Assembly (NCBI GenBank): GCA_029856155.1
Contig: JAHQWL010000101.1
Location: 1 to 13,309 of the forward strand
DNA length: 13,309 nt
Direction of reading: 5' to 3'
Origin: Promethearchaeia archaeon
GTDB taxonomy: Archaea > Asgardarchaeota > Lokiarchaeia > Sigyniarchaeales > SOKP01
Under the pieces are notes generated by a model. That model made no database searches and was not told the DNA's origin. It was given only the letters and a program-made list of their open reading frames with translations. Positions within the stretch are counted from its first letter, which is position 1, and each line of letters opens with the position of its first letter. Of this stretch, positions 2,117 through 13,309 are shown one piece after another. The position numbers were made by a program, and so were the translations under genes.

Positions 2117-2989
2117 GTGATAAATATAGGTATTAAAAAATTGGATTTTAAAACAATTTATTTTGATTTGTATGAGCTAAGTCCGGGAATTTATACGGCT
2201 ATAACCGCTGAGAAATTACCTTCTTCAAATGCTGGTTTTTTTGATTTTGGCAACTATTTGGTCATTTTTGATACACTTTTTGATCCGTTTTCCACTATTG
2301 ACTTAATTGAAGCTTCAAAGCAATTTACAAATAAAGAACCATCATTTGTAATAAATAGCCATTATCATATGGATCATTTATTAGGTAATCGTAAATTTCC
2401 TTTAAATATACCGATCATTAGTAGCTCTAAGGCATTGTCAGAATATTATAAAAATTTAAACGATACACTTAAACGCTACAAAGGAATTGCCGGACAAGAA
2501 TTAAAAAGAACAAAAGAAATTGTCAAAAAAGAAACTGAACCAGATAAGATTCTTGAATATAATAATGATATAAAAACCTATACTGAATTTCTTGACGAAA
2601 ATTTTACATTGAGACCTCCAGATTTCATTACAAATAGTTCTTTTACAATCCAAGGAACAAAAAACCAAGTTCAGATAGTACATATAGGAGATGCTCACAC
2701 ATCAGGAGATATGATTGCATACTTCGAAAAAGAAAAAATTGTTTTCATGGGAGATTTATTATTTGAGCAACCTGATCCTAGTTGGTATACTAGAACTAAT
2801 CCTGCGCCTGCTGATCCTCCTGCTAATCCTCAACGACTCTGTGATACTCTCATTGAATATATGGAAAAGGACATTGATATATATATTCCAGGACATGGGA
2901 AGATATGCTCAAAAAAAGACCTTCAAGAAAATGCAGAATTTTTCGAAAAATACTTCATTAAGAACGAAATAACTAAAACTGCAGCATAA
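2117..2989 (+). CDS. MBL-fold metallo-hydrolase (cyclase/glyoxalase II-like)
   Basis: SNAG..., IFDT, HYHMDH (HxHxDH), AHTSGD, FMGDL and IPGHG give the full set of MBL metal-ligand motifs. Confidence 0.88.
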   Translation: MINIGIKKLDFKTIYFDLYELSPGIYTAITAEKLPSSNAGFFDFGNYLVIFDTLFDPFSTIDLIEASKQFTNKEPSFVINSHYHMDHLLGNRKFPLNIPIISSSKALSEYYKNLNDTLKRYKGIAGQELKRTKEIVKKETEPDKILEYNNDIKTYTEFLDENFTLRPPDFITNSSFTIQGTKNQVQIVHIGDAHTSGDMIAYFEKEKIVFMGDLLFEQPDPSWYTRTNPAPADPPANPQRLCDTLIEYMEKDIDIYIPGHGKICSKKDLQENAEFFEKYFIKNEITKTAA

Positions 2990-3110: not shown

Positions 3111-3122
3111 CCTTTGGTTTCC

Positions 3123-3341
3123 TCACGGTTTATATATATTTAAAAATAAAATGATTAAATTTGAAATGTTATTAAAACAAACTTGTGAATTCTTACTTTT
3201 AAACAAATCTGCCACGAGTTTTGATAATAAGAAAAACTTCCTTTTTTGGAGTCTTCTCCTATTAAATGAATTTTCTGGTTTGAATATATATTTCAATAAA
3301 TTTTCGACTTTTTTTTCAATTAAACGTGAATCCCCCATCAA
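3123..3341 (-). CDS. N-terminal part (70 aa plus KP-stop) of an inversion-split small protein; basic N-terminal region
   Basis: 72-aa ORF (TTG 3341 or ATG 3338; GAGTGA upstream) ending just past IRL. Its last residues FNNISNLIILFLNIY align with the middle of the neighbouring paralogues (FLDIPNLAIPFSAVF; FPDVSQFLTSFADLG). Confidence 0.7.
   Translation of the reverse strand: MMGDSRLIEKKVENLLKYIFKPENSFNRRRLQKRKFFLLSKLVADLFKSKNSQVCFNNISNLIILFLNIYKP
3130..3157 (-). repeat. Left inverted repeat (IRL) of putative invertible segment
   Basis: Minus strand reads TAATCATTTTAT-tt-TTAAATATATATAA; matches plus-strand 3748-3776 in a 12-bp and a 14-bp arm. Confidence 0.85.
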
Positions 3342-3485
3342 TTAAAATTCACTCTCTTTTATGGATTATCTTTATTTAATTATAAAAAGAGGTTGAATTT
3401 TTGATAGAGGTTAAAACAATGCTTAGAGTTATATCTTATACTTATTGAATTAGAGAATTTTACATATAAATTCAAAAAAAAAAGT

Positions 3486-3710
3486 TCAATCTGCTAAGAA
3501 CTCATTAATAAGAATTTCTTGATATTCAGGAAGTCTTTCTTTAAAACACATTTTCTCGTCTCCAAAATAAATAAATCCTGGTTTTTTACTTTCACCTAAA
3601 TCAGCAAATGAAGTAAGAAACTGGGATACATCTGGGAAATGAGATTGTTCTACGGTTTGAAAAATATCTTGAATCGTTTTATATATATCTTTGGCTTCCA
3701 TTGTCAACAT
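3486..3710 (-). CDS. Small hypothetical protein, paralogue 1 of the 'ILxxEFL' family
   Basis: 74 aa; C-terminus IYFGDEKMCFKERLPEYQEILINEFLAD is clearly similar to that of 3980-4201; followed by a T run on its own strand (A run 3474-3483). Confidence 0.75.
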   Translation of the reverse strand: MLTMEAKDIYKTIQDIFQTVEQSHFPDVSQFLTSFADLGESKKPGFIYFGDEKMCFKERLPEYQEILINEFLAD

Positions 3711-3747
3711 ATCTGAACTTGATATTTTTAGACTATTTTTTTGAGTA

Positions 3748-3776
3748 TAATCATTTTATAAATTAAATATATATAA
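3748..3776 (+). repeat. Right inverted repeat (IRR) of putative invertible segment
   Basis: TAATCATTTTAT-aaa-TTAAATATATATAA; contains palindromic TTTATAAA at 3755-3762. Confidence 0.85.
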
Positions 3777-3882
3777 TGAAAAATTTCCAATGGATAATTA
3801 TTCTAGCCTAGAAGATAAGTCTCTTAAGAATTACAATTCAGAATTTAAACATATTCTGAAAGATGAATTTCTTAATGAATAA
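3763..3882 (+). pseudogene. Orphan C-terminal part of the inversion-split gene (contains a 30-aa ORF from ATG 3790)
   Basis: Translated by hand: LNIYNEKFP-MDNYSSLEDKSLKNYNSEFKHILKDEFLNE-stop. Not in the ORF track. Carries the family C-terminal motif E(F/Y)xxILxxEFL. Confidence 0.7.
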
Positions 3883-3979: not shown

Positions 3980-4201
3980 ATGGGTTTAGAGTTAATAAAT
4001 AGTAAAATTCACTTCAATGACAGTGAATTAAAAATCTCTGAAGAATTTTTAGACATTCCAAATCTAGCAATCCCATTCTCAGCTGTTTTTAAAAAAGAAG
4101 ATATACCAGACATCTATTCTGGAGAGGATAATATACCATTTAAGGAAAAAGTCTCAGAATTTCAACAAATTCTAATAAATGAGTTTTTAAGAGATAGGTA
4201 A
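3980..4201 (+). CDS. Small acidic hypothetical protein, paralogue 3 of the 'ILxxEFL' family
   Basis: 73 aa; C-terminus IYSGEDNIPFKEKVSEFQQILINEFLRDR is similar to 3486-3710 and 3763-3882. Confidence 0.75.
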   Translation: MGLELINSKIHFNDSELKISEEFLDIPNLAIPFSAVFKKEDIPDIYSGEDNIPFKEKVSEFQQILINEFLRDR

Positions 4202-4335: not shown

Positions 4336-4968
4336 ATGGAGAAATTAGATAAAATATTCGAAAAAATTCATGCAAGTTATTTTGGGTTTATTGGAATTGC
4401 TATTTTTCTTGTTGGAGCAATCCCCGCGATGTTGGTTCATAATAGTTTCAGTTTATTGACTACTTTTATTAGTGAATTGTCCGTACCAGGATGGAATGAC
4501 TTAGCTATTTTCTTTAGTGTATGTTGGTTTATAACTGGGCTTTTTATGATATTATTTATATTAGGATTTACTAGATATTTACAAGAGAAGGGAGCATCTA
4601 CAAAAGGAACTTGGATAGCGTGTATTTTAGGTGTAGTTTCAGCTATAGGTATTTTAATGTTGGCACTATTTAATACAAGGGACTTTGATGCATTACACGA
4701 TATCGCACAATACGTTTTCTTCTTCCCAGGTATTTTATACTTATTCAGTTACGCCTATCTTGAATATAAACTCTCGGAGTTTCCACTTTGGCAAGCAATG
4801 ATTAATATTATTGTAGCATTTTTCTTCATACTATACTTGGTGCTTTTTATTGTTAATAGAGTGGAAGAAACGCTACTTGTAGAAGCTAAAGTTTTAGCTG
4901 AGTGGTTATTTCTTTTTTCAAATTTATTCTGGTTTGTAGAAACAGGTGCTTTTATCCTAAAGAAATAA
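4336..4968 (+). CDS. Integral membrane protein, DUF998 / Frag1-DRAM-Sfk1-like
   Basis: About 6 TM segments; FISELS after TM1, a His (ALHDIA) after TM3 and EW in the last helix fit this clan. Confidence 0.65.
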   Translation: MEKLDKIFEKIHASYFGFIGIAIFLVGAIPAMLVHNSFSLLTTFISELSVPGWNDLAIFFSVCWFITGLFMILFILGFTRYLQEKGASTKGTWIACILGVVSAIGILMLALFNTRDFDALHDIAQYVFFFPGILYLFSYAYLEYKLSEFPLWQAMINIIVAFFFILYLVLFIVNRVEETLLVEAKVLAEWLFLFSNLFWFVETGAFILKK

Positions 4969-12309: not shown

Positions 12310-13309
12310 ATTCACCTCCAGTGAATTTCTTAATTTGTTCTCGATTTAATTTTTTTGCAGGAAATCGTCCATATATATTATTTTTTCCCAACTGATCATA
12401 TTTTATTGATGCACACATTGGTAATACTGTAGAATTATCTTCCATCTTTAAACCTGGTAAAGAACCATTTGATAGACTAAAAACGCAATTATTACCAATG
12501 TCAGCTCCAAAAAAAGTTAGATTTTCTTCTCCGTAAACGCCGTCAACTAAATGGTTGGTAATGTGGGAAAAAGTTCCGATATAACAATTTCTACCATAAT
12601 CAACATGACTATGGAAAAAAGTATCTTCAAAGACTGTTGCTTTACCAATCTTATTCGAACCTATAAATTTTAACTCCCAATTAATAAGCCAAGGAAAGGG
12701 AGAACGAATAAAAGCAAAGATTGGATATTTAAATAAGAAGGACCTAAAATGATAATAATCTAAAGCTTTAGATGTTTCGTCTAAATTCCGATCAAATACT
12801 CCTTGAACATGTCCTCTTTTATCTGTTATTTTGTAAAACCATCTAGTAAAGAGCGCTACAAAAAATAAATGAATGAGGTATATCGCAATAAAAATTAAAG
12901 GTGTAAGGAATAGATTTGTAATTATAGTTGTATCTAAAAATGAATTTAAAGAAAAAGTGGTTGAGAGTAAATTTGGGATTAGTAATCCAAATAGAAATAA
13001 GAAAAATAAAAAACCGGGCAAAATAAAAGAACACCCAATTATAATTATTCCCGCGATTAAATAGAAGTGAAAAGGAACTGATAATTCCTTTGCATACGCT
13101 CTTAAATTTTCTGTATCATATTCATCAAAAATCTTCCTATTAAAAATAATATTTTGGAGCTTATTGTGATTTTTAATTGATTCTGTTCCCTCTATCTTTT
13201 TAGCAGGAGAACCTCGGTAAATTGCGTTAGATTCTAACCGTTGATTAAGTGTTGTCATTGCAATTGCATCTAATATTGTATTAGATTCTATTATTGTTCC
13301 AGGTAATAC
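12296..13309 (-). CDS. Membrane-bound protein with at least two left-handed beta-helix modules (5' end outside window)
   Basis: The frame is open to the window edge (VLPGTIIESNTILDAIAMTT...YRGSPAKK is the end of one LbH module), then two TM segments and a second module (IGSNKIGKATVF, YGRNCYIG, IGNNCVF, YGRFPAKK). Confidence 0.8.
   Translation of the reverse strand, partial: VLPGTIIESNTILDAIAMTTLNQRLESNAIYRGSPAKKIEGTESIKNHNKLQNIIFNRKIFDEYDTENLRAYAKELSVPFHFYLIAGIIIIGCSFILPGFLFFLFLFGLLIPNLLSTTFSLNSFLDTTIITNLFLTPLIFIAIYLIHLFFVALFTRWFYKITDKRGHVQGVFDRNLDETSKALDYYHFRSFLFKYPIFAFIRSPFPWLINWELKFIGSNKIGKATVFEDTFFHSHVDYGRNCYIGTFSHITNHLVDGVYGEENLTFFGADIGNNCVFSLSNGSLPGLKMEDNSTVLPMCASIKYDQLGKNNIYGRFPAKKLNREQIKKFTGGEYDGE

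Follow-up and report, generated by a model that had tools for sequence, protein, structure and literature searches.

A lineage-specific inversion at a short inverted repeat splits a small conserved gene in an Asgard archaeon

The window, by which we mean the whole stretch of DNA analysed here, is an entire contig (C101) of 13,309 bp from a MAG of 4.1 Mb (104 contigs, 30% GC). Because the source names of some homologues are Thorarchaeota, Hermodarchaeota and Promethearchaeota, the organism is, to judge from these names, an Asgard archaeon, as the original prediction for this DNA had thought probable. The ORF list places four small ORFs, two on the minus and two on the plus strand, between a gene of the metallo-beta-lactamase fold and a DUF998 gene, and the features of this region are, from left to right:

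2117..2989, plus strand: metallo-beta-lactamase-fold (MBL) gene, the left synteny anchor
3123..3341, minus strand: 5' part of the split 104-aa gene, truncated, with 72 codons if read from a TTG or 71 from an ATG at 3338
3130..3143: left outer arm of the inverted repeat, TTATATATATTTAA, TATA-box-like and the exact complement of 3763-3776
3144..3762: inverted segment, flipped with respect to every other species
3146..3157: left inner arm, ATAAAATGATTA, with two base changes specific to the lineage, now adjoining the 5' part of the split gene
3486..3710, minus strand: first paralogue, 74 aa, within the inverted segment; every other species has its orthologue on the opposite strand
3748..3759: right inner arm, TAATCATTTTAT, from the putative promoter/leader region of paralogue 1, with the ancestral form in loci L001 and L019
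3763..3776: right outer arm, TTAAATATATATAA, coding (codons L-N-I-Y-N of the 104-aa gene) and conserved as coding in relatives
3763..3882, plus strand: orphaned 3' part of the split 104-aa gene, 39 codons plus stop, LNIYNEKFP...DEFLNE
3980..4201, plus strand: third paralogue, 73 aa, outside the inversion and in the ancestral orientation
4336..4968, plus strand: DUF998 membrane protein gene, the right synteny anchor

Structurally, the two-arm inverted repeat described in the original prediction is there, with 26 of 26 identical bases in a 12-nt and a 14-nt arm: the copy at 3130-3157 reads TAATCATTTTAT-TT-TTAAATATATATAA on the minus strand and the copy at 3748-3776 reads TAATCATTTTAT-AAA-TTAAATATATATAA on the plus strand, the two spacers (TT in the left copy, AAA in the right) being different. 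The minus-strand ORF at 3123-3341 runs through the left repeat and ends in ...LIILFLNIYKP-stop, with the stop just past the repeat after two foreign codons (K and P), as had been read from the letters; it matches residues 1-71 of the 104-aa query at 82% identity and appears as cluster P0047 in the protein collection. The plus frame from 3763 reads LNIYNEKFPMDNY...DEFLNE-stop and matches query residues 65-104 at 88% identity; this orphaned 3' part has no start of its own except an internal Met, which gives a 30-aa ORF, and presumably lacks a promoter of its own. The segment between these points comprises the first 70 codons of the 104-aa gene and the DNA upstream of them, as well as paralogue 1 in full, 5' leader included, and reverse-complementing it (3144-3762) in silico yielded one open in-frame ORF of 105 codons, ...NISNLIILFLNIY|NEKFPMDNY...DEFLNE, which agrees with the predicted fusion into a protein of 104-105 aa. 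Both gene halves are free of stops and frameshifts, and by eye the private amino-acid changes of the lineage are no more numerous than those of its relatives. Antisense to the truncated fragment lies a 64-codon ORF (3151-3345, plus strand), whose ATG is inside the left inner arm, a short way downstream of the TATA-like arm kept there, and for which a Pfam search returned no family; it may be open simply by chance in AT-rich DNA, and the putative old paralogue-1 promoter could now be driving antisense transcription there.

Evolutionarily, the arrangement in the window is the exception. In a tblastn of six window proteins against all fetched loci, the 27 loci from other species were collinear without exception (27/27), with the 5' and 3' parts of the gene abutting in one frame, and the window alone was inverted. 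Every one of these loci encodes an intact protein of 101-105 aa that continues through the junction (...LIILILNIY|NEKFP...) and does not end at NIYKP, and the order is MBL, paralogue 1 (~75-79 aa), the 104-aa gene, paralogue 3 (~73-75 aa) and DUF998, all on one strand, which is the tandem arrangement that flipping the segment had been predicted to restore. The 104-aa protein of locus L002 matches the in-silico fusion across the junction (...NISNLIILILNIYNEKFPMDNYSSLED...). A census of the genus found the gene in 38 of the 53 genomes of other species, and wherever present it was uninterrupted across residues 62-70; among the 39 genus genomes with a match, the window's own (G000) is the only one in which the gene is split, with residues 1-71 matching on the minus and residues 65-104 on the plus strand. 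Outside the genus, 24 additional genomes from the order and class gave no match to the 104-aa gene, and among the 61 genomes searched the family and its shorter paralogues are confined to the genus. A handful of homologues of the 73-aa paralogue were found, and a metagenome scan with the 72-aa fragment returned three loci only, all collinear and all from other species.

The protein collection (15 billion proteins) contains 59 clusters of the 104-aa family, nearly all of 101-105 aa, across which the core KKKFxLLSKLVADLFNxKNSxxCFNNISNLIILILNIYNEKFPVD is almost invariant; since the break point falls within this core, it interrupts the protein at the centre of its best conserved region. An hhalign comparison of the 104-aa and 73-aa families gave a probability of 97.4% (E 1.3e-11) over 65 columns spanning the junction, pairing NISNLII...PVDIYS...K(H/Q)ILxEEFL with DISNLIIPFS...PPDIYSGEE...FQQILINEFL, in keeping with the predicted alignment of the fusion with its neighbours, and the motif E(F/Y)xxILxxEFL in the 3' part of the 104-aa gene is common to all three small genes. 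On this profile alignment the three are true paralogues, and the comparisons as a whole show, at the level of sequence, that the 104-aa family and the two shorter paralogues are real and strongly conserved genes. Functionally, a Pfam search of the five small ORFs assigned no family (one match to RAP1, at E 0.074, was set aside as chance), and an ESM Atlas feature search with the 104-aa protein gave no usable match. An AlphaFold2 model of that protein (51-row alignment) has four helices at a mean pLDDT of 58.6, which is too weak for a fold search, and exact look-ups of the paralogue-1, MBL and DUF998 proteins added nothing new.

The 104-aa gene is decaying or has been lost in several relatives. 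In-frame stops (TAA or TGA) interrupt it in six genomes of other species, the N-terminal part is missing from the matches in three species (G025, G017 and G013), and two metagenomic contigs carry truncated or frameshifted copies (L034:621-878 and L035:1223-1483), one through a C-terminal deletion or divergence and the other through a frameshift. Examples of decay from the genus search are:

G016:C54
G004:C77
G014:C176
G075:C270
G071:C31
G026:C37

By this pattern the gene is, as far as the genomes tell, dispensable in relatives, and the locus itself appears to be prone to rearrangement, so that losing the 104-aa gene through a rearrangement is unremarkable here. Two truncated homologues, P0064 and P0060, were considered as independent inversions at the same site and rejected: the former is a same-strand deletion or divergence and the latter a frameshift. 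Among the neighbours, the paralogue-1 orthologue of a close relative (L002:174-395) has a GAA>TAA nonsense change at codon 40, which shortens the called ORF to 39 aa. The closest GTDB species (L007, G005:C72, 880-1360) has lost the MBL and 102-aa genes by deletion, together with the 5' portion of paralogue 1, and an MFS transporter gene directly adjoins the paralogue-1 remnant. Many genus genomes also have, elsewhere, ORFs of 159-166 aa that contain more distant relatives of the 104-aa protein, with matches (E 1e-4 to 1e-8) that cover query residues ~22-95, for example at G015:C38:38109-38324 and G020:C1:30003-30215; with the 104-aa query, none was reported in the window's genome.

Within the species, an exact look-up of the 73-aa protein identified four conspecific contigs (L030-L033) from four samples (Logan SRR25582489, Logan SRR3095933, JGI 3300032029 and ENA ERZ27232714), all of them 99.6-99.9% identical to the window and all inverted, with the same junctions and spacers apart from an A/G difference at position 3771. 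Logan contigs of four runs from four studies were also compared with the window. In run X1 a single 3,291-nt contig covers both junctions and the whole stretch between them in the inverted arrangement, and in run X3, a salt-marsh sample from another study, a 623-nt contig crosses the right junction, also inverted. Every same-species assembly or Logan contig over a junction thus has one orientation, although all 22 runs found are represented by contigs, which drop minority variants and cannot show the absence of the other orientation. Contigs of runs X4 and X5 end near the left repeat (at 3121 and 3123), and contigs there break at many other places too; the ends and holes near the repeats in X3, X4 and X5 are evidence for neither orientation. 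The protein collection includes the truncated 71-aa form, and in its 59 homologue clusters no intact protein exceeds 88.5% identity to the fusion.

These contigs bear first on whether the rearrangement exists at all. If the genome were truly collinear with its relatives and an assembler had mis-joined it at the inverted repeat, the split would be an assembly or amplification artefact, a concern raised by the fact that the window is a whole 13.3-kb metagenomic MAG contig and that inverted repeats can mislead assemblers. The repeat, however, is only 28-29 bp long, shorter than the Logan k of 31 and than any Illumina read, so that such a mis-join is not credible; moreover, the four other assemblies, made from different samples by different pipelines in different years, have identical junctions, and the independent 3,291-nt Logan contig runs across both. 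We regard an artefact as extremely improbable. As all conspecific contigs are inverted with the same junctions, the inversion is real and older than the ~0.4% divergence among the conspecific strains.

The repeat itself is specific to the lineage. Upstream of paralogue 1, relatives have at the counterpart of the left site the sequence (T)TTAAATATATA(T/C)AA-TT(T/C)-AT(A/G)AAATGATT(A/G), a TATA-box-like element ~50-65 nt before the paralogue-1 start codon that, from archaeal promoter architecture, is probably the paralogue-1 promoter. The counterpart of the right site is coding and reads TAAT(A/T)ATTTTAA-TT-TTAAATAT(A/T/C)TA(T/C)AA. In inverted register the two sites of relatives match at ~21-22 of 26 positions, and perfect 26/26 arms are confined to the window's lineage. 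When the right site was aligned locally with the ~1 kb upstream, using shuffled sequence as control, its best inverted partner in 22 relatives scored 10-15 (shuffle means 11-13.6), that is, the repeat is not conserved there; in the window the score over the upstream kilobase is 21, against a shuffle mean of 12.8, and 0 of 200 shuffles reached it.

Aligning both junctions with loci L001, L002, L003 and L019 placed both breakpoints within the 28-29-bp repeat. Any single-crossover model, worked by hand, leaves at least four base differences, all of them towards arm identity. Two are in the coding-derived inner arm, namely a synonymous ATA>ATC and an ATT>TTT that produces I65F at a position that is at least 90% conserved as Ile; neither change (given on the coding strand) occurs in any relative compared, and both add complementarity to the promoter-side arm. 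The other two are in the outer arm, where the coding-type version of a near-palindromic TATA sequence is present at both junctions. Because all four lineage-specific changes run towards arm identity, their simplest reading is a short-patch gene conversion that would have accompanied or followed the inversion.

Mechanistically, then, we posit that the event began with two AT-rich stretches that resembled each other by chance in inverted orientation (~21-22 of 26 positions), one being the TATA-box region and leader start of the paralogue-1 promoter and the other the stretch encoding ...LIILILNIY..., which belongs to the best conserved core of the 104-aa gene. The intervening DNA would then have been flipped by one ectopic recombination event between these sites or by a replication template switch, and short-patch conversion in the paired 28-bp region, then or soon after, would have changed four bases and made the arms identical, with a paired, heteroduplex or template-switch intermediate as the likely setting. 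An alternative origin, that the rearrangement itself created the repeat through staggered breaks whose fill-in duplicated breakpoint sequence in inverted orientation, would account for a perfect repeat in the inverted lineage only, and for each arm resembling one ancestral site in two copies, the other ancestral version having disappeared. It is nevertheless very unlikely: the order of pieces at the left junction, worked by hand, is not that of flank, own overhang and inverted foreign overhang, the promoter-type inner arm sits between a coding-type spacer and a coding-type flank, and relatives are already ~21-22/26 complementary at exactly these two sites.

Genome-wide, the 14-mer alone occurs three times and the 12-mer alone 16 times (both strands), about as composition predicts. 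In contrast, a scan for inverted pairs within 1 kb with two exact arms next to each other, each at least 12 nt long, returned just two composite repeats in the 4.1-Mb genome, the window pair and one on contig C22; single arms occur at the expected frequency and paired arms are rare, so the non-randomness resides in the two arms standing side by side. The C22 repeat (12405-12438 and 12934-12967, arms of 21 and 12 nt, ~500 bp apart) flanks a whole 150-aa ORF on the minus strand, by the look of its sequence alone a NifU/IscU-type scaffold protein, and splits no gene; it could be an operator pair, twin promoters or a whole-gene invertible unit.

The search for an enzyme that might act on the repeat gave little. 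The window encodes no recombinase, by its ORF list and by the Pfam labels of the syntenic locus L001, as had been noted at the outset. The 97%-complete genome has one PF00589 match, which is its single tyrosine recombinase, XerA (NF040815 at 236.5 bits, against an NCBIfam equivalog cut-off of 220), situated at L036 (G000:C81, 194-3485) between a thioredoxin reductase gene and an orc1/cdc6 gene, which probably puts the xerA locus near a replication origin. No serine recombinase (PF00239) was found in this 97%-complete genome, and with XerA as its sole tyrosine recombinase it encodes no dedicated invertase.

The original prediction offered a switch or a fixed one-off inversion, and these results favour the latter. 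The combination that it had named as speaking against a switch, a single orientation and a repeat that relatives do not conserve, is what was observed, as far as contigs show. Under the former, the assemblies would have captured the majority OFF state, the one seen here, of a young, species-specific reversible switch whose ON state would be an intact 105-aa protein with three tandem paralogues, and whose agent would be XerA in trans, or RadA-dependent or microhomology recombination between the perfect arms. Arms that are perfect in one lineage only are what concerted evolution of repeatedly recombining sites would give, and the four directed changes are also an expected product of repeated recombination between the sites; the restoration is exactly in frame, the gene halves are undamaged (as expected for a recent inversion and equally for a maintained switch), and the ends of the X4 and X5 contigs at 3121 and 3123 could mark a graph branch, although there are many other breaks too. 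Against this, all junction-covering same-species contigs, including strains 0.4% diverged, have one orientation, the protein collection lacks an intact conspecific protein, the genome has no dedicated invertase, the repeat is conserved in none of the 22 relatives, and the 104-aa gene is decaying in several of them. Furthermore, the A/G polymorphism among conspecific strains at 3771 lies inside the right outer arm, and the G, present in the contigs of runs X1 and X3 and in loci L031 and L032, reduces this arm to 13/14 and leaves the repeat no longer perfect, yet the inverted arrangement is unchanged there. (The G also creates an in-frame ATG two codons before the junction, with the result that the 3' fragment is called as a 37-aa rather than a 30-aa ORF.) We therefore consider the reversible switch unlikely.

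Comparison with described systems points the same way. Putative archaeal invertons, 12 in number, had already been reported by Chanin et al. (PMC10028968), and an intragenic case from Salarchaeum sp. JOR-1 is one of them, which corrects the original prediction in one respect. Their scheme separates 'intragenic' from 'partial intergenic' invertons, and here the earlier label needs correction: one repeat of the ancestral layout lies in the intergenic, putative promoter region of paralogue 1 and the segment holds a whole extra gene, so that the restored layout is 'partial intergenic', not 'intragenic', and the switch weighed above would be classed likewise. Like both kinds, the locus has inverted repeats around a sub-kilobase segment whose flip alters a coding sequence and brings an early stop, with one orientation restoring the protein in frame; unlike them (PMC10028968), it has no invertase, its repeat is not conserved, and both orientations have not been seen together at contig level. 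The fim/hin switches and shufflons share with it a repeat-bounded segment whose orientation decides whether an intact gene is expressed, but these rely on a dedicated recombinase of the tyrosine (FimB/E) or serine (Hin/Gin) type, in most cases encoded next to the segment, and on conserved recombination sites, neither of which was found here.

Inversions that become fixed after short inverted repeats have recombined ectopically or undergone a template switch are a general form of prokaryotic rearrangement, and quasi-palindrome template-switch mutation is likewise a known process. The locus resembles these in having its breakpoints at inverted repeats and a derived state in one lineage against collinear outgroups, in the clustered changes that perfect an imperfect repeat and in the disruption of a gene as a by-product. 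It departs from them in the very short repeats (12 + 14 nt), in the pairing of a TATA-like promoter element with coding sequence, and in its host, an Asgard archaeon with uncharacterised recombination pathways. Collinear outgroups, breakpoints in repeats and a single orientation in the sampled conspecifics, the features of a fixed inversion, were all found, whereas among the features of an inverton the flanking inverted repeats were found and an invertase and site conservation were not. We thus favour, at a probability of roughly 0.78, a real inversion of ~0.62-0.65 kb that is confined to a single lineage, has become fixed in this Asgard species and is not a programmed switch.

The consequences of the fixed inversion can be read from the junctions. 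The break in the 104-aa gene follows codon 70; the 5' part still has its own upstream region and ends after Lys-Pro, and the 3' 35 codons, with the motif common to the three paralogues, have lost their start and presumably their promoter. Paralogue 1 has moved together with its leader and now lies behind the coding-derived, near-palindromic TATA-like outer arm, which differs from its original TATA-like element at two symmetric positions, and on this resemblance the paralogue probably stays expressed. At the left junction, a TATA-like element is kept, now facing the antisense of the truncated gene.

Even so, the perfect arms leave some room for a newly evolved, invertase-independent switch, in which XerA, homologous or microhomology recombination would flip the 0.63-kb segment at low frequency. 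We hold this to be distinctly improbable, and phase variation in Asgard archaea is not established by contig-level evidence; if true, the 104-aa protein would toggle between full-length and truncated forms while the neighbouring paralogue is re-oriented, and the locus would give Asgard archaea their first documented invertible element and capture how an inverton is born. As a fixed inversion, the locus would be a well-polarised natural case in which a very short chance inverted repeat has rearranged an archaeal chromosome and truncated a gene, and the gene conversion that seems to have gone with it may offer a small window on recombination in Asgard archaea, organisms that few laboratories can grow.
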